Of a DNA stretch of 64,000 nt, positions 9,513-64,000 are shown one piece after another (position 1 is the stretch's first letter; every line of letters starts with the position of its first letter). The DNA is from Myxococcales bacterium (lineage in GTDB: Bacteria; Myxococcota_A; UBA9042), in assembly GCA_947499075.1 (NCBI GenBank), contig CANMNA010000002.1:1287-65286 (forward strand), in the 5' to 3' direction. The position numbers and the translations under genes are program-made. The notes below the pieces were generated by a model that was given only the letters and a program-made list of their open reading frames with translations, made no database searches and had not been told where the DNA came from.

Positions 9513-11324
9513 ATGGTCGCGGCTTTTGCCCAGCGCTACGCCTTGCGCTACCTGCCGTACTACCTGGCTGGCCTGATTTTTTTGGCCCTGACCAACTACT
9601 TGACGGTGGCCATTCCGCGCCTGCAAAAAGAAGTGTTTGACGAGCTCGCCGGGGCCCGCAATGCCGAAGTGGTCCACACCAACGCGCTGTGGATTGCGGT
9701 GGCGGCGGTGGCGGTCATCGTGGTGCGCTGGCTGTCGCGCATCCTGTTCTTCAACCCTGGACGCACCATCGAGTTTCGCCTGCGCAACGACATGCTGTCC
9801 AAGCTTTTGGCCATGTCGCCGGCATTTTACCGCACGTGGCCGATCGGCGACTTGATGGCCCGCGCCACCGACGATGCCGCGTTTGTGCGCGCGCTGGTGG
9901 GGTTTGCCGTCATCATGGCCCTAAACATGGTCATCGCCGCCAGCATGGCGCTGTGGCAGATGTGGCACACCGACGCTTGGCTGACGGTGTACTGCGTGCT
10001 GCCGGCGCTGGCGGCAGTCTTGATCCTGCGCAAGGGCGTGATGTGGGCGATGGCCTACATCAAGCAGACCCAAGTGGCGCTGGGCAAAGTCAGCGCGTCG
10101 GTACTTGAAGCGTACAAAGGCATCAGCGTGGTCCAGGGCGCGGCCGCCGAGCAAGCATTTCTGGCCCGTTTCGATGCGGCCAATAGCAACTACACCCAAC
10201 TGAACCTGCGGCAGGCTGCGATTCGGACATTCTTGATGCCGGTGGTGGGCGTGGTCGGCAACCTGTGTATCTTCTTGCTGTTGTGGCAAGGCGGCCAGCA
10301 TGTGGTGGCGCGCCAGATTACGCTGGGCGACATGGCGGCCTACGCCAGCTACGTCGCGGTGCTCGTGGGTGCGCTGGCTTCGGGGGGATGGGTCGTCGGC
10401 GTGCTGCAGCGCGGCATGGTCTCGCTGCAGCGCTGCTGGGACATCGCTGAACTGCAACCTGATTTGGGCGATGGCCCCGAGCAGATGCCCCAGCGGCCGG
10501 GCGGCGTCCACCTGCGGGTCAACAACCTGACGGTGTTTCAGCCGGGCGCTGCCTGCGATACCTTGCCGGTGCTGCGCGACGTCAGTTTTGACCTGCCGCC
10601 CGGCCACGTGCTGGGCGTGTATGGCGCGGTGGGCTCCGGCAAGTCGACGCTGGTGGCGGCGCTGGCGCGGATGCTGCCCGTGGCGTCCGGCAGCATCACG
10701 CTCGACGGGGTGGCGCTGCCTGACGTGCGCGACGCCGACCTGCGGCGTGCGGTGGCGGTGGTTCCCCAAGAACCCTTTCTGTTTTCGCGCAGCCTCTGCG
10801 ACAACATTGGGTTTGACGATGCGGCCGCCGATGTCGACTTGGCGCGGGTGCAGGCAGCGGCCGACGACGCCCAGCTGACCGCCGAAATCGCGCGCATGCC
10901 GCAGGGCTTGGCGACGGTGGTCGGCGAGCGCGGCTTGCTGCTTTCAGGCGGCCAGCGCCAGCGGGCGCAGCTGGCCCGGGCGCTGTACCGCGGCGGCCGC
11001 TTGTTGATCCTCGATGACGTGCTCTCGGCGGTCGACCATGAGACAGAAGAGCGCTTGCTGGCGGTCATCCGCCGACGGGTGGCAGCGCAAGGCATGTCGG
11101 CGGTCGTCATCTCGCACCGGCTATCGGCGCTGGCCCAAGCCGATGAAATCCTGGTGTTGGGCGACCCGGCATCGGACCAGCGCGGTACGGTGGTCCAGCG
11201 CGGCAGCCATGGGCAATTGCTGGCACAGGCCGGCCTGTACGCCCAAGTCTGGGCGGCGCAAAAGCAGGCAGAGTCGGGTCTGGATCAGCCCAATTCTGAG
11301 GTCTTGTCGGCGGCTGCGGCCTAA
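9513..11324 (+). CDS. Fused permease/ATPase ABC exporter (MsbA/ABCB-like)
   Basis: An N-terminal 6-TM domain is followed by an NBD with Walker A GAVGSGKST, the signature LSGGQRQRAQLARAL and Walker B LLILDD. The ATG at 9513 sits just before TM1. Longer starts at 9168 or 9361 would translate the repeat arrays. Confidence 0.8.
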   Translation: MVAAFAQRYALRYLPYYLAGLIFLALTNYLTVAIPRLQKEVFDELAGARNAEVVHTNALWIAVAAVAVIVVRWLSRILFFNPGRTIEFRLRNDMLSKLLAMSPAFYRTWPIGDLMARATDDAAFVRALVGFAVIMALNMVIAASMALWQMWHTDAWLTVYCVLPALAAVLILRKGVMWAMAYIKQTQVALGKVSASVLEAYKGISVVQGAAAEQAFLARFDAANSNYTQLNLRQAAIRTFLMPVVGVVGNLCIFLLLWQGGQHVVARQITLGDMAAYASYVAVLVGALASGGWVVGVLQRGMVSLQRCWDIAELQPDLGDGPEQMPQRPGGVHLRVNNLTVFQPGAACDTLPVLRDVSFDLPPGHVLGVYGAVGSGKSTLVAALARMLPVASGSITLDGVALPDVRDADLRRAVAVVPQEPFLFSRSLCDNIGFDDAAADVDLARVQAAADDAQLTAEIARMPQGLATVVGERGLLLSGGQRQRAQLARALYRGGRLLILDDVLSAVDHETEERLLAVIRRRVAAQGMSAVVISHRLSALAQADEILVLGDPASDQRGTVVQRGSHGQLLAQAGLYAQVWAAQKQAESGLDQPNSEVLSAAAA

Positions 11325-53683: not shown

Positions 53684-53932
53684 GTGGCCATGCAAACAGT
53701 CAACATGCTCGAGGCCAAATCGTCGCTGTCCAAGCTCGTTGCCGCTATCGAAAGCGGCGATGAGACAGAGGTGGTGCTCGCCCGCAATGGCCGACCCGTG
53801 GCCCGGATTGTGCCGCTCGCAGCATCTGCGGCAGGTGCCCGCATCGGCATTGCCAAGGGCCATTTTGTGGTGCCTGCGGGTCTCGACCGGCAAGACCCCG
53901 AGATGGTTGCCTTATTTGAAGAGGGCGCTTGA
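53684..53932 (+). CDS. vapB: Type II antitoxin (Phd/YefM- or VapB-type)
   Basis: It is 82 aa with N-terminus MQTVNMLEAKSSLSKLV. It overlaps the downstream PIN gene by 4 nt. Confidence 0.7.
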   Translation: MAMQTVNMLEAKSSLSKLVAAIESGDETEVVLARNGRPVARIVPLAASAAGARIGIAKGHFVVPAGLDRQDPEMVALFEEGA

Positions 53933-54315
53933 ACTACCTGCTCGATACCCACATGGCGATTTGGGCGATTGCCGACAGCCCAGAATTACCGCCAGCTGCC
54001 CGGGCAGCCATCGGTCACCCACGCAACCAGATTTGGGTCAGCGCCGCTTCGATTTGGGAAATCGCGATCAAGCACGCCAAGCGCCCTAGCGAGATGCCGA
54101 TTACCGGTCACCAAGCGTTGGCGTACTTTGCGGGGGCAGGCTTCACCCTGTTGCCGATTGAGGGGCTGCACGCCGCCGCTGTCGATGGACTGCCCGGGGT
54201 CCACCGCGACCCGTTTGACCGCCTTTTGGTGGCCCAAGCTGTTGCTGAGTCGCTTCAATTGCTGACCCATGATGGCCTGTTGGCGGCGTATGGCCCCAGC
54301 GTTAGCGTCGTGTAG
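53929..54315 (+). CDS. vapC: PIN-domain toxin VapC
   Basis: The TTG start overlaps the antitoxin stop. The PIN motif is LLDTHMAIW, with the acidic residues ...D...E...D. Confidence 0.75.
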   Translation: MNYLLDTHMAIWAIADSPELPPAARAAIGHPRNQIWVSAASIWEIAIKHAKRPSEMPITGHQALAYFAGAGFTLLPIEGLHAAAVDGLPGVHRDPFDRLLVAQAVAESLQLLTHDGLLAAYGPSVSVV

Positions 54316-55619: not shown

Positions 55620-58475
55620 ATGAATTGTTCAAGAACCTACTTTCGATTGGCCAGCCTGTGTGGCGCAGCGCTGGCCGTGCTGGTGGCAGTGGCAGCCGAC
55701 GCCCAAGAAGCCGCGCCCGACGATGCCAAAGGTGGCGAGCGCGCCATTCCGGTCTCCGGCGGTGCCGGCAAGGTCAGCAAGAAGGCCAAAGACGGCGCGA
55801 TCAAGGCTGGCGGTGGCGGTGCGGGCGTCATCAAGCGCAAGGGCGGGGCCAAGCTTGATCCGGAGTCGGACCCGGCGGCCGCCAGTCGCCGTGCCGACAA
55901 AGCGGACCCAGCTGAGCCCGGCCTGCCGCCGCGTGCTGGCGACACCAAGCCGGACGCAGCGCCCGGTGGTGCTGGCGGCGGTGCTGGCTCACCCAAAGAC
56001 CTGGAGAAGCTCGAAGACGTCATCACGATCAAAAACAACTTCATGGACATCAAGTGCAAGAAGCTGCCGCTGCACTTCAAGGTCACCGTCGATTTTCAAG
56101 ACGCGCCGCTCGAGTCCGTGACCAAGCTGATGAGCTGCTGGATGGACCGCAACTTTGTGGTCGCCACCCAAAAGCGCGGCGGCAAGATCACCATCCTGTC
56201 GCCCCAGCGCGTCAGCGTCTACGAAGCCTACCGCGCGTTTCTGTCGAGCCTGGCGGTCAACGGCTTGTCGATCACCAAGAAGGGCGAGTTCCACCACATC
56301 GTCGATTCGCCAGACGCCCGCAGCAGCGGAGCGGAAATTTATGGTCCCAAAGGCAATGTCCCCGATTTGGACAACATCGTCACCCGGTTGATTCGCCTCA
56401 AGCACATCGAAGCCAAAGACGCCGAGCCGATCTTGAGCAAATTCAAGTCCAAGGGCGGAGATTTGTTCATCTACGCCCCGACCAACACGATTATCTTGAC
56501 CGATCAGGGCAGCAATATCCGGACCATTTTGAAATTGCTGCAGGAAATCGACCTGCCGCTGGGCTCGGACAAGATCTTTATCCGGCCGGTTCAAAACATG
56601 GATGCCGCGGAATTGGTCGAAAAAATCAACGCCGTGTTTGGCGAAGGCGGCGGCGGCGGCAGTCGGGGTGGCGCGCCTCCCCCTCAAAATGCCGCGTCGG
56701 CTGCCAAAGTCTCGCTGACCAAAGCGATTGCCGACGACCGCAGCAACCAGATCATCCTGATTACCACGCGGTCCAACTACCTCAAGGTCGACGCGCTGAT
56801 CCGGCGGCTAGATGTGCCAATCCCTGGTGAGGGGCAAATTCACATCCACCACTTGGAGAATGCCGACGCCGAAGACGTGTCGCAGACCCTGTCGTCGCTG
56901 ACCGGCGGCGGCGGGGCCAAGGGCGCCAAGGGCGGCAAAGGCGGTGGGGCCAAGGGCGGTGCCTCGACCGCGCTGTTTGGCGGCGAGGTCAAGATCACCG
57001 CACACAAGGCCACCAATGCGCTGGTCATCGAAGCGTCGCTCAAGGACTACATCGCGCTGCAAAAAGTCATCGGTGAGTTGGACCGCCGGCGCAAGCAAGT
57101 CTATGTCGAAGCAGTCATTATGGAAATCTCGACTTCGAAGAGCCGCAAGACCCAGATCGCGGGGTCTGCGGGCACCACGTTCGACATCGGCGGCGCGACC
57201 GTGCCGTTGCTGTTTGGCCTAGGCGGCTTGGGCATGTCCGGCGTATCGCTGCAGCAACTCAATCAGGGTGGCTTCGCGGCCGGCATGCAAGGTCCGCTGC
57301 TGCAGGTCAACGCCGGCAACAGCGGCAACAGTGGCGTGCCTGCTGGGGTGACACTGTCGATTCCAGCGTTTGGTTTTCTGATCCAGGCGATCCAGGAGAA
57401 TAGCGATGTCAACGTGTTGTCAACGCCGCACATCCTGACGCTGAACAACGAAGAGGCCGAGATTCAGGTCGGCCGCAAAGTGCCGTACCGCTCGCAGACG
57501 ATGGGCGGTCTGGGCGGTCTGGGTGGCGCACTCGGTGGTCTGGGCGGCGCCGCGGCAGGCGCGCTGGGCGGACTAGGCGCGCTGGGCGGCCTGGGTGGCC
57601 TGGGCGGAGGCACGGTGCAGTTCCTTGACGTCGACCTGACCCTAAAAATCACGCCGCAGATCAACGAGAGCGATTTCATCAAGCTCAAGATTGACCAGCA
57701 GTTGCAAGAAGTGGAAGGCATCGACCCCAACCTCGGGCCGACGACCAGCAAGCGCAAGGTCGTCAACACCGTGGTGGTGCGCGATCAGCAGCCGGTCGTC
57801 ATCGGCGGCCTGATCACCGACCGCGAGACCACCGGCGTGGCCAAGGTGCCGGTCTTGGGTGATTTGCCGCTGATTGGCATGCTGTTTCGCAAGTCGACCA
57901 AGCTCATCGAGAAGAAGAACCTGCTGCTGATCGTGGTGCCGCACATCATCAAGGATCCCAGCGATCTCGAAAAGATGCACGAGACCAAGATGGAGCAGAT
58001 TCGCCAGTTTGCCGAAGAGCTGGCGACCAAGCACAAGGAATACGAGGGCAAGTTCAACTACGCCAAGAAGAAAGGTTTTCTCGAAACCGTGTTCCAAGCG
58101 GTCGAGAAGAGCGCCAACCAGCGCAAGCAGTTGGAGAAGGCCTACTACGACAACCAGGACGTCGACAAGGTCGGCGCGCCCGACAGCCATGACTTGGAGT
58201 ACGACCCGGCCAAGGCCAAAGCGCCGGACAAGGACGCCAAGAAAGCCGATGGTGCTGGCAAGAAGCCAGACGAGGTCGAAGACACTACCGAGGATGGCCC
58301 CGGCATCGAAGTCATTGAATTGCCCGAAGATGGCACGCCCGGCACCGCACCCGCCACCAAAGACGGGCCAAAGTCGGAGCCCAAGGCCAAGCCAGCCGTC
58401 AAGCCGCCTGTGGTCGCGCCTGCCAAGGGCAAAGCGGCTGTGCCCGTCAAGAAGAAGAAGAAGGGTGCGAAGTGA
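55620..58475 (+). CDS. gspD: Type II secretion secretin GspD with Gly-rich inserts and a Lys/Pro/Ala-rich C-terminal tail
   Basis: A signal peptide and N domains are present. The secretin core is VLSTPHILTLNNEEAEIQVG ... GGLITD ... VPVLGDLPLIG. Confidence 0.85.
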   Translation: MNCSRTYFRLASLCGAALAVLVAVAADAQEAAPDDAKGGERAIPVSGGAGKVSKKAKDGAIKAGGGGAGVIKRKGGAKLDPESDPAAASRRADKADPAEPGLPPRAGDTKPDAAPGGAGGGAGSPKDLEKLEDVITIKNNFMDIKCKKLPLHFKVTVDFQDAPLESVTKLMSCWMDRNFVVATQKRGGKITILSPQRVSVYEAYRAFLSSLAVNGLSITKKGEFHHIVDSPDARSSGAEIYGPKGNVPDLDNIVTRLIRLKHIEAKDAEPILSKFKSKGGDLFIYAPTNTIILTDQGSNIRTILKLLQEIDLPLGSDKIFIRPVQNMDAAELVEKINAVFGEGGGGGSRGGAPPPQNAASAAKVSLTKAIADDRSNQIILITTRSNYLKVDALIRRLDVPIPGEGQIHIHHLENADAEDVSQTLSSLTGGGGAKGAKGGKGGGAKGGASTALFGGEVKITAHKATNALVIEASLKDYIALQKVIGELDRRRKQVYVEAVIMEISTSKSRKTQIAGSAGTTFDIGGATVPLLFGLGGLGMSGVSLQQLNQGGFAAGMQGPLLQVNAGNSGNSGVPAGVTLSIPAFGFLIQAIQENSDVNVLSTPHILTLNNEEAEIQVGRKVPYRSQTMGGLGGLGGALGGLGGAAAGALGGLGALGGLGGLGGGTVQFLDVDLTLKITPQINESDFIKLKIDQQLQEVEGIDPNLGPTTSKRKVVNTVVVRDQQPVVIGGLITDRETTGVAKVPVLGDLPLIGMLFRKSTKLIEKKNLLLIVVPHIIKDPSDLEKMHETKMEQIRQFAEELATKHKEYEGKFNYAKKKGFLETVFQAVEKSANQRKQLEKAYYDNQDVDKVGAPDSHDLEYDPAKAKAPDKDAKKADGAGKKPDEVEDTTEDGPGIEVIELPEDGTPGTAPATKDGPKSEPKAKPAVKPPVVAPAKGKAAVPVKKKKKGAK

Positions 58476-62554: not shown

Positions 62555-63421
62555 ATGCGCAAGGGCTTTACGCTGATGGAAGTGATGGTGGCGATGGCCG
62601 TGCTGGCCTTTGCGCTGACCATTATTACCGGCGCGGCCTCGTCGTCATCGGCCTACTCCAAGCGCGTGTACCGCAGCACGGTGGCGGCTTTGCTGTTGCG
62701 CGGGACCATGCTCGACATCGAGGAGAAGTACCGCAAAGAGGGCTTTCCGACCAACGACCTGCAGGGCCGAGACTGCGAGTTGCCCAAGAGCTACGCCAAG
62801 CAGTTCCGCTGCAAGTACGACTTAATCGGCTTAAACCTGGACGACGCGTCGATCGCCGACATGACGACCCAGGCCAACACCCTGTTGGCCAAAGCCCAGG
62901 AGACCATGGCCCAATCGGGCGCGCTGGACAAGCTCTCCGGCGAAGGTGGGCCCAAGAAAACCGCCGACCTGAGCAACGCGGCGGCGCAGGCCCAGAGTGC
63001 CGGGCTCGACTTGACCGGCATGTCCAAGGGCGGCGACCTGATGAGCCTGCTCACGGTCATCTTGATGTCGGGCGATGCTGGCCTGAACCTGCTGCAACTG
63101 TGCGATATCAACATCAGCGTGCTGCAGATGTCGATGGGCCTGATGATCAGCGAACTCTTGCCGCGGGTGCTCAAGCGCGCCAGCGACCGCACCCGCAAGG
63201 TCATCGTGCGCCTGCAGTGGAAAGACGAAGAGGGCGACCAGCGCACCCTGGAAATGGAGACGTTTTCGACCGCGGTCAGCCAGGAGGAAGCCGAGGCGAT
63301 CCGCGCCATGAAGCAAAACGAGAAGATCGAGAACGCGGTCGACCCCAATGGCACGATGCAGCCGCAGATTCCGGGGTTGAACAAGATTTTGGGCACGCCG
63401 CGGCCGGGGGCACCGCGATGA
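62555..63421 (+). CDS. Minor pseudopilin (GspI/J-like, 288 aa)
   Basis: The prepilin motif is KG|FTLMEVMVAMAVLAF. Confidence 0.6.
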   Translation: MRKGFTLMEVMVAMAVLAFALTIITGAASSSSAYSKRVYRSTVAALLLRGTMLDIEEKYRKEGFPTNDLQGRDCELPKSYAKQFRCKYDLIGLNLDDASIADMTTQANTLLAKAQETMAQSGALDKLSGEGGPKKTADLSNAAAQAQSAGLDLTGMSKGGDLMSLLTVILMSGDAGLNLLQLCDINISVLQMSMGLMISELLPRVLKRASDRTRKVIVRLQWKDEEGDQRTLEMETFSTAVSQEEAEAIRAMKQNEKIENAVDPNGTMQPQIPGLNKILGTPRPGAPR

Positions 63422-63432
63422 GGGCAACCGCG

Positions 63433-64000
63433 ATGTTTGACCGTGATTTCGCCGCTGCGACCTCACCCCCTAACCCCCTCTCCCTGAAGGGAGAGGGGGG
63501 ACCGGACGGGGTATCGGCCGTGACGAATCGGCAGGTAGTTAGCGGCACCAAAGTGGCGCTCGCTAAGAGTTTCCGGAGACTTGCTACAGACGCGGAGGCT
63601 CAGGCTTGGGGAATTCTACGCAATCGGGGCGTTCTGGGTCTCAAGTTTCGTCGACAGCAGGTCATTTGCGGGTTTGTCGTGGATTTCTACTGTGCTGCCT
63701 TGCGACTGGCGCTCGAGATCGACGGCGAGGTTCACGATTCCGCTGAGGCGATGTGCTTCGACCACGCGCGCTCCGACGTCCTGCGTGCCCATGGAATTCG
63801 AGTCGTCCGTGTTCCGAACCACAACGTGACAGAAGCCGGGCTGTCCGCTGTGCTTTCCCTCTCCCTTCAGGGAGAGGGCCGTTCGGTGCCGGAAGGCACC
63901 GAACGGGGTGAGGTCGGGGCGGGGGCCCACCAGCGCGAACTCGGCTTCACCCTCATCGAAATCATGGTCGCCGTCGCGCTCTTGGCCATGTTGGGCATCA
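63433..64000 (+). CDS. 3'-truncated ORF in which a DUF559 (Vsr-like endonuclease) domain is fused in frame upstream of a prepilin leader/cleavage site (G|FTLIEIMVAVALLAML)
   Basis: A manual frame-1 translation from ATG 63433 has no stop codon to the window end (about 189 codons were checked). Residues ~30-140 match the DUF559 pattern (LRNRGVLGLKFRRQQVICGFVVDFYCAALRLALEIDGEVHD...GIRVVRV). The last 25 codons encode RELGFTLIEIMVAVALLAMLGI. This ORF is absent from the supplied ORF track because it has no stop in the window. Confidence 0.6.
   Translation, partial: MFDRDFAAATSPPNPLSLKGEGGPDGVSAVTNRQVVSGTKVALAKSFRRLATDAEAQAWGILRNRGVLGLKFRRQQVICGFVVDFYCAALRLALEIDGEVHDSAEAMCFDHARSDVLRAHGIRVVRVPNHNVTEAGLSAVLSLSLQGEGRSVPEGTERGEVGAGAHQRELGFTLIEIMVAVALLAMLGI
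63474..63499. repeat. Perfect 11-bp-stem hairpin (ccccctctccc-tgaa-gggagaggggg), the left boundary of the DUF559 cassette
   Basis: Direct reading. Its reverse complement recurs at 63857..63878. Confidence 0.9.
63857..63878. repeat. Hairpin (ccctctccc-ttca-gggagaggg), the right boundary of the DUF559 cassette; inverted copy of 63474..63499
   Basis: Direct reading. Confidence 0.9.

Follow-up and report, generated by a model that had tools for sequence, protein, structure and literature searches.

A hairpin-ended DUF559 nuclease element inserted in frame within the leader-coding DNA of a Myxococcales gspJ gene, and its relatives across bacterial phyla

Rickettsia palindromic elements are non-autonomous and are not known to carry a gene, and in the REPtron system RAYT is a Y1 HUH (IS200/IS605-type) transposase, associated with repetitive extragenic palindromic (REP) repeats that are species-specific. 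Here we analyzed 64,000 nucleotides of a Myxococcales bacterium (assembly GCA_947499075.1, contig CANMNA010000002.1, positions 1,287 to 65,286 of the forward strand; this whole stretch is called the window), in which a 457-nt hairpin-ended unit encoding a Vsr-like DUF559 nuclease lies in frame within the leader-coding DNA of gspJ, a minor pseudopilin gene of a type II secretion system (T2SS). The Rickettsia elements place palindromic repeats in frame in protein genes, where the peptide is tolerated, and are described as having only a conserved peptide open reading frame (ORF) (PMC10969869). As for the nuclease, VSR, DUF559 and DUF2726 form one superfamily clade, which includes I-Bth0305I (PMC3424549, Table 1), and in Caulobacter the DUF559 protein VsrA has a functional link with a cytosine methyltransferase (PMC12907096). 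The leader of a prepilin stays in the cytoplasm, which the active site of the peptidase faces, and leader length varies (PMC10191384).

The unit resembles each of several known systems in part. As in the Rickettsia elements, hairpin-only and hairpin-DUF559 units of its family also lie in frame in host ORFs; unlike them, the window unit has an intact nuclease gene, its relatives are spread over many phyla and not one genus, and it occupies a segment that is normally cut from the host protein. It shares with homing endonuclease genes such as that of I-Bth0305I the superfamily clade, a profile and fold match to 3r3p and, in the methyltransferases described below, a patchy occupancy of one site among orthologs. 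Like the homing genes of inteins and introns, it would leave a host product restored after expression, here as predicted at the protein level by a host signal peptidase. It differs from homing endonuclease genes in lacking an intron or intein, in lying inside a coding region and not free-standing between genes, and in its inverted-repeat hairpin ends, which homing endonuclease genes are not known to have. The REP/RAYT system likewise has a small gene between inverted hairpin repeats that are also dispersed without a gene, whereas the gene here encodes a PD-(D/E)xK nuclease instead of a Y1 transposase and the repeats cross phyla. Pairs of miniature inverted-repeat transposable elements and insertion sequences offer a further parallel (terminal inverted repeats, gene-bearing long and short deleted forms, unrelated contexts), but DUF559 is the sole gene of our unit, which has neither a target-site duplication nor a recognized (DDE) transposase. 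The multiple unrelated contexts were seen across metagenomes and genomes, and none within the 74 kb readable of this genome. To our knowledge, the element is far smaller than any known insertion sequence. An intein, an insertion sequence and a REPtron were each rejected, since the defining tests failed (no Hint domain; no transposase or duplication; no Y1 transposase). The host protein itself is like other GspJ pseudopilins in its N_methyl and T2SSJ domains and gspI-gspK position, and unlike them in a leader of 171 or 176 aa that contains a folded nuclease, versus 4 to 25 aa in the intact N termini of the closest orthologs.

By sequence comparison, we regard the insertion event, the family of elements and its mobility, and the in-frame architecture as established. 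The features of the locus, in window coordinates, are as follows.

62555..63421, + strand: third pseudopilin gene, at the GspI position, 288 aa (ORF list; Pfam N_methyl, E 5.6e-7; gene order)
63418..63420, + strand: likely original start codon of gspJ (its ATGA overlaps the stop of gspI; second in-frame ATG at 63433-63435)
63418..64000, + strand: 5' part of a single ORF, comprising leader, DUF559 and pre-GspJ (stop-free translation; gene call on the parent contig L001)
63459..63915, + strand: hairpin-ended DUF559 element, 457 nt end to end (family-consensus ends; absence from 62 gspJ genes; GC content at third codon positions [GC3])
63459..63499, + strand: left end, GACCTCACCCCC-TAA-CCCCCTCTCCCT-GA-AGGGAGAGGGGG, comprising the outer motif and the hairpin at 63474-63499 (inverted repeats), encoding TSPPNPLSLKGEGG
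63520..63855, + strand: DUF559 domain, a Vsr-like PD-(D/E)xK nuclease, apparently intact (Pfam, alignment, AlphaFold2 [AF2], Foldseek, PDB profile)
63857..63878, + strand: right hairpin, the reverse complement of the left one (100% complementary), encoding LSLSLQGEG
63879..63906, + strand: extra perfect 28-nt hairpin with a 12-bp stem, between the right hairpin and the terminal motif (inverted-repeat search)
63905..63915, + strand: right terminal motif GGGGTGAGGTC, whose TGA is the stop of many family members and is out of frame here
63934..63999, + strand: prepilin cleavage and methylation motif (N_methyl, TIGR02532; G176 at 63943-63945, F177 at 63946-63948)

A frame without stop codons runs from the ATG at 63433 to base 64000 in the translation of the window, and another ATG of this frame, at 63418, forms an ATGA with the TGA that ends the upstream pseudopilin gene. 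A preliminary description, made from the window alone, had the ORF start 12 nt past gspI; the ATG at 63433 is indeed in frame there, but the likely ancestral start is the one at 63418. The window forms part of a 102-kb contig (L001; ENA contig ERZ27280213 k141_2614728), which matches its last 10 kb at 9,998 of 10,000 bases. On this contig the ORF was annotated as a single gene of 469 aa, whose product contains DUF559, N_methyl and T2SSJ domains, and the gene order is secretin (D), GspE, GspF, G, H, I, J, K and L-like. After leaving the window it reaches its stop at the window-equivalent position 64842 (12288 of L001), so that the product has 469 aa from ATG 63433 and 474 aa from ATG 63418. The proposal of one ORF reading through DUF559 into a prepilin motif is thus upheld: the frame is open to the end of the window, extension of the contig carries it on through a complete GspJ, and no stop separates the DUF559 domain from the GFTLIE motif in the window or in L001. 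No promoter- or terminator-like sites were found on the + strand between 63000 and 64000.

The host is a genuine gspJ, as judged from its domains and its place in the gsp cluster. It matches N_methyl (PF07963; Pfam E 2e-6), the NCBIfam model TIGR02532 (IV_pilin_GFxxxE) and T2SSJ (PF11612; 31.8 bits against a cut-off of 28). The cleavage motif QRELG↓FTLIEIMVAVALLAMLG (the arrow marks the cut) is canonical, as had been claimed, with the predicted cut between G176 and F177 (63943-63948), and belongs to the type G/A↓F(T/S)L(I/V/M)E common to the window copy and its orthologs; in the AF2 model the helix begins at residue 179. A search with the GspJ body returned 62 other proteins (26 to 83% identity, 175 to 324 aa), with source names in Myxococcota and "Deltaproteobacteria," none of which carries DUF559 (0/62). 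The best-matching ones share 80 to 83% identity with the GspJ body across 91% or more of the query. We read the 19 closest orthologs, and the 18 with intact N termini have leaders of 4 to 25 aa (for instance, MKRG↓F, MNARRA↓F and MTYRHTMAAKGFPALPSRQPERQAG↓F), and ortholog leaders are basic. The leader in the window, of 171 or 176 aa with a folded domain, departs from the short hydrophilic leader, removed by prepilin peptidase, of minor pseudopilins. Deletion of 456 nt restores MRATAMFDRDFAAAGAGAHQRELG↓FTLIE, with a leader of 24 aa, inside the ortholog range.

The junction with gspI also preserves its ancestral form. The gspI stop and the gspJ start overlap by 4 nt in the closest ortholog locus (L004) and by 1 nt in two others (L005 and L008). 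Since the ATGA at 63418 is the same as the overlap in the closest ortholog locus, 63418 is the likely ancestral start, which gives the leader of 176 aa. The DUF559 coding part has a GC3 of 0.63, compared to 0.79 to 0.88 in the gsp genes, which points to a foreign origin. The surrounding T2SS genes and the GspJ body are all intact, and L001 is collinear, to the left and right of the insert, with orthologous T2SS clusters. The absence of DUF559 from 62 orthologs, together with their short leaders and the gspI/gspJ overlaps, shows that the insertion is derived. The DUF559 unit is, on this comparison, a lineage-specific insertion into the leader-coding DNA of gspJ, located before the cleavage site, in line with the insertion into a pseudopilin leader that was first proposed. 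Two side observations concern this cluster: the pseudopilin at the GspI position is unusually long (288 aa; 62555-63421), and the secretin (951 aa; 55620-58475) has long Lys/Ala/Pro/Gly-rich tails at both ends.

The inserted domain is, by its sequence, a bona fide member of the DUF559 family. The profile search that had been suggested for it gave a match far above the curated threshold (PF04480; 83.6 bits against a cut-off of 20.6, E 1.1e-23). Alignment of the window sequence with 23 relatives revealed 19 invariant columns, including D55, E66 and H72, and 14 columns were invariant across 60 DUF559 sequences. The core and catalytic residues are kept (the D of VDFYC, the E of EIDG, the H and the R/Q cluster). 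An AF2 model of the 194-aa N-terminal part of the fusion has a predicted local distance difference test value of 93 to 97 over most of residues 41 to 155, with one 10-residue block at 86. The best Foldseek matches of the modeled domain were 3hrl (E 1.4e-5), 3r3p and 1vsr, and sequence profiles of the PDB returned 3hrl (E 1.5e-25) and also 3r3p (I-Bth0305I) and Vsr. From these data the nuclease domain looks intact. In the same model, the hairpin-encoded segments form disordered linkers, and low confidence marks the disordered region between about residue 156 and the cleavage site (156 to 178). Pfam matches were limited to DUF559, MTES_1575, N_methyl and T2SSJ.

The two GC-rich hairpins that bracket this domain were said to be reverse complements of each other, and they are. 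They have arms of 12 nt (63474-63499) and 10 nt (63857-63878), and their 22-nt cores (63476-63497 and 63857-63878) are 100% mutually complementary; the hairpin pattern occurs twice in the window, compared to 0.00 expected from 100 shuffles. Outside the hairpins, the inverted repeat goes on as far as GACCTCACCCCC (63459) on the left and GGGGTGAGGTC (63915) on the right. Beyond these ends, a further complementarity of 5/7 nt (63452-63458 and 63916-63922) is probably due to chance. The extra 28-nt hairpin is an insertion relative to six family members; it was absent from all the other fetched loci and viral contigs, being private to the window copy, and includes an in-frame GTG at 63886. It is buried in the RNA fold of 63845-63950 (-65 kcal/mol, z = -4.5). 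Across the right terminal motif the frame of the window copy reads R-G-E-V-G. Searches of Rfam with the hairpins of the window and eight short units from elsewhere gave only sub-threshold, generic microRNA-like matches and no family.

We fetched 80 metagenomic DUF559 loci (81 with the window), and a pattern search found the end motif on both sides of DUF559 in 37 of them (38/81 with the window), most with canonical ends and a few with looser matches. The left-end consensus is GWC↓CTCACCCCC-NNN-CCCCCTCTCC-loop-GGAGAGGGGG (here the arrow marks the border of the element), and its reverse complement lies downstream, ending in the right-end consensus GGGGGTGAG↓GWC; the ends of the window copy match the consensus. 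Family members are ~450 to 600 bp long, with ~40-nt inverted repeats, each containing a GC-rich hairpin, and with DUF559 as their sole gene; in many, the two hairpin loops are mutually reverse-complementary. The complementarity of the ends is 97, 88 and 85% at three positions outside CTCACC and random beyond. Elements matched each other in 562 of 703 pairs, and their flanks shared DNA in only 11 of 528 upstream and 4 of 300 downstream pairs, which represent the same loci resampled. Unrelated flanks around mutually matching elements indicate a mobile unit of ~510 to 600 bp, and the idea of a small mobile cassette is accordingly borne out by the same ends bracketing DUF559 in many unrelated loci. 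Searches of the literature for DUF559, for Vsr-like or very-short-patch nucleases with inverted repeats and for the stem sequences returned no description of such an element. An intein or intron was rejected as an explanation of the unit, since Pfam found no Hint or splicing domain and there was no intron signature.

Two side observations concern the arrangement of these elements. Many of them (loci L140, L142, L145, L159 and L162) have partial copies of their end sequences immediately next to them, which suggests nested or tandem insertion into older copies, or longer composite ends. A protein of 1,018 aa (P0446) has nine DUF559-like stretches and one of 377 aa (P0304) has three; in each, several elements in tandem may have become joined in one ORF.

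The DUF559 relatives of the window copy are free-standing proteins of ~100 to 210 aa, at most 64% identical to it over the aligned part, and many end in peptides such as SPPNPLSxxGEGG and PLSxxERGLGGEV, which are translated hairpins. Several members have their own ATG 117 to 141 nt from the left end. Of the 37 other elements, 13 use the TGA of the terminal GGGGGTGAG as the stop of their ORF and 6 use a TAG that precedes the right end by 39 nt; overall, ~70% of the 37 terminate inside the element or within 6 nt past it. From the interval separating the left hairpin and the domain, in which a start would be expected, the window copy is missing ~75 nt; it also has no pre-hairpin TAG, and its terminal TGA is out of frame. 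Compared at the sequence level, it is an atypical, shortened member of the family that has lost its own start and stop, from which it follows that the nuclease could be produced only fused to pre-GspJ.

The ends of the element are also found without the nuclease. The exact 21-mer at 63462-63482, TCACCCCCTAACCCCCTCTCC, was located at more than 120 sites in species-representative genomes of Chloroflexota, Cyanobacteria, Planctomycetota, Bacteroidota, Gemmatimonadota, Myxococcota and candidate phyla, including the cultured strains Oscillatoria sp. PCC 10802 and Hymenobacter telluris. DUF559 was present within 900 nt in 3 of 125 occurrences, which ruled out the 21-mer as a marker of DUF559 genes. 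The remaining occurrences are solo hairpins or two-hairpin units, mostly of 75 to 200 nt, and the two-hairpin units look, from their sequences, like internally deleted derivatives. We also observed that many of the hairpin units without DUF559 sit just past stop codons (loci L011 to L130). In Alloprevotella (L113, 2790-2936; L087), two inverted end motifs enclose a conserved AT-rich segment of ~100 nt with no DUF559, possibly an alternative cargo carried between the same ends.

As far as the surveyed sequences tell, elements of this family have repeatedly come to lie in frame within host proteins. In an ORF of 880 aa (L202, 43-2682), a hairpin-DUF559-hairpin unit interrupts an N6_N4 (Mod-type) DNA methyltransferase, and the listed orthologs of ~655 aa match the protein without the insert over its entire length (100%). 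The unit was found at one site in 4 of 120 orthologs of this methyltransferase (P0184, P0188, P0190 and P0300). These four carriers are 64 to 99% identical to the query, and closer non-carriers 72 to 76%. The same methyltransferases carry a second in-frame insert consisting of a hairpin only, e.g., HPPLHEGEGPGLPAGQAGV. Presence and absence at the same site is thus seen for the Mod-type methyltransferase; for gspJ, one occupied lineage and no near-identical empty allele are known. We also surveyed the length of the best 150 of 17,753 DUF559 representatives (E ≤ 0.001). Nine of these 150 have at least 350 aa, and the seven that were read include as hosts Eco57I/MmeI-type methylases (one with two inserts), a split HsdM methylase domain and a split GT2 glycosyltransferase. 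Hairpin peptides lie at the borders of the insert in most of the long DUF559 proteins read, and hairpin-only units were also in frame within host proteins of this survey. As a side observation, the hosts are strongly biased to DNA methyltransferases (the set of P0305, P0328, P0383, P0436, P0401 and P0390). The preliminary description had presented the gspJ case as an unusual way of hitch-hiking without inactivating the host gene. The leader site is indeed special, since it is normally cut off, but in-frame residence as such recurs and is not a one-off.

On balance, we think it somewhat probable that the fusion is translated as a single ORF, cleaved by the prepilin peptidase between G176 and F177, and thereby split into a restored GspJ and a released nuclease, a scheme built on the reading frame and the structural model. 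A tiny mobile element would have inserted between the ancestral gspJ start and the cleavage site, giving a fusion of 474 aa from 63418 in the order leader, linker, DUF559, linker, G↓F and GspJ. Its translation, from 63418 or 63433, would be coupled to that of gspI; in this operon, stops and starts adjoin closely and Shine-Dalgarno sites are weak. The pseudopilin helix would act as an N-in signal anchor, the folded nuclease staying in the cytoplasm on the low-confidence linker, and the peptidase would then cut on the cytoplasmic side after the conserved Gly of G176↓F177. The products would be a mature GspJ of 298 aa and a free nuclease of ~19 kDa. The published topology of leader and peptidase makes cleavage of a 176-aa leader plausible. 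Insertion would have been nearly neutral for secretion, with selection retaining only in-frame, stop-free variants, and the nuclease presumably drives the spread of the element by homing or hairpin-directed cleavage.

Several observations weigh against this scheme. No leader near 176 aa was seen among the orthologs read, the longest having 25 aa, and we know of no report of a prepilin leader of ~176 aa. A crude motif search for the prepilin peptidase signature GxGD[VF]K found none in the 74 kb. The length of 457 nt is not a multiple of three, and the insertion can be delimited only to within ±1 nt. A single metagenomic assembly covers 63883-63945, where the frame into gspJ is set. A check of the genome for other copies found none of the element, of the hairpin or of DUF559 in the readable 74 kb. 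For the family as a whole, no direct repeat of 2 to 9 nt was enriched as a target-site duplication at 64 boundary offsets, and no empty and filled allele pair of the element was found. Finally, the insertion could be recent and mildly deleterious instead of neutral. On the same question of mobility, the lack of target duplications fits poorly with classical transposition, and the kinship with I-Bth0305I and the same-site occupancy in methyltransferases suggest, by analogy, a homing-like or hairpin-directed nuclease mechanism.

Among the alternatives, the one that survives best, although we consider it unlikely, is that the insertion disabled gspJ, with the fusion mis-targeted or left uncleaved, either as a recent insertion not yet purged or in a dispensable T2SS. 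The lack of any such leader size among the orthologs read agrees with this, as do the foreign composition, which suggests a recent arrival, and the knowledge of the element in gspJ from one lineage only. The neighboring T2SS genes and the GspJ body are nevertheless intact, the latter still 80 to 83% identical to the closest orthologs. Moreover, the 5' deletion, the stop loss and the 28-nt insertion all keep the frame, which implies time under selection, and relatives persist in frame in diverged methyltransferase orthologs.

Translation of a functional GspJ from an internal start, with an incidentally open upstream frame and the fusion as a minor or unstable by-product, seems rather unlikely. 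Two GTG codons lie in frame between the domain and the G↓F site, at 63850 and at 63886. The GTG at 63886 would yield a leader of 20 aa (MPEGTERGEVGAGAHQRELG), inside the ortholog range, and has GGGAGAGGG, which resembles a Shine-Dalgarno site, 7 nt upstream; furthermore, a GC-rich linker of ~30 codons could stay open by chance, the stop frequency being ~1.7% per codon. Yet this GTG and the Shine-Dalgarno-like sequence are both inside very stable stems (the -65 kcal/mol fold), and the latter is the 3' arm of the neighboring hairpin. The operon uses stop/start coupling, and here there is no upstream stop for re-initiation. The candidate leader is acidic, versus the basic leaders of orthologs, and selection accounts better for a frame that is continuous on both sides of the domain in an element that has lost its own start and stop.

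We consider it very unlikely that the right junction was mis-assembled across a repeat and that the fusion is not real. Two independent short contigs from other samples confirm the left junction (L002 and L003), and one of them (L002) also confirms DUF559 up to the second hairpin. Both end within the element, L002 directly behind the right hairpin; 63883-63945 is spanned by a single assembly, and no other record of the 469-aa product was found in the gene index that was searched for independent contigs of the full fusion. The 102-kb contig is, however, collinear with orthologous clusters on both sides, the right end has the family terminal motif at the expected position, and there is no nearby second copy of the repeat to cause a collapse. 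The view that DUF559 is a domesticated Vsr-type mismatch-repair nuclease, with unrelated hairpins and a regulatory co-option of its position in gspJ, can draw on the link of Caulobacter VsrA to a cytosine methyltransferase (PMC12907096) and on the many in-frame relatives in DNA methyltransferases, but is highly improbable, as the same inverted-repeat ends invariably accompany the gene into its unrelated contexts, it is absent from all the gspJ orthologs found, and mismatch repair has no apparent link to pseudopilins.

Elsewhere in the window, a PhdYeFM antitoxin/PIN toxin gene pair (53690-54315) lies just upstream of the T2SS cluster.

We tentatively propose, as a possibility, that these units constitute an undescribed, cross-phylum class of minimal elements, with a nuclease as their only gene, stop-free ends that encode linkers and so permit residence in host proteins, and numerous gene-less derivatives, and that the copy in the gspJ leader is excised by the peptidase, which would free an active nuclease, as a functional analogue of an intein without splicing. 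Should the fusion be produced and cut, it would follow that prepilin peptidases accept a leader ~10 times longer than any seen in this comparison and containing a folded domain, selfish DNA would have a route into an important gene at almost no cost, and the locus would provide a natural design for freeing a cytoplasmic protein from a membrane-targeted precursor. Independently of cleavage, there is a family of small hairpin-ended units, with a 21-nt end motif identical across phyla. The large DUF559 family (17,753 representatives at E ≤ 0.001) thereby gains a testable role, and the family of elements explains many odd peptide tails of the "PLSxxGEGG" type and inserted domains in annotated proteins, especially DNA methyltransferases.

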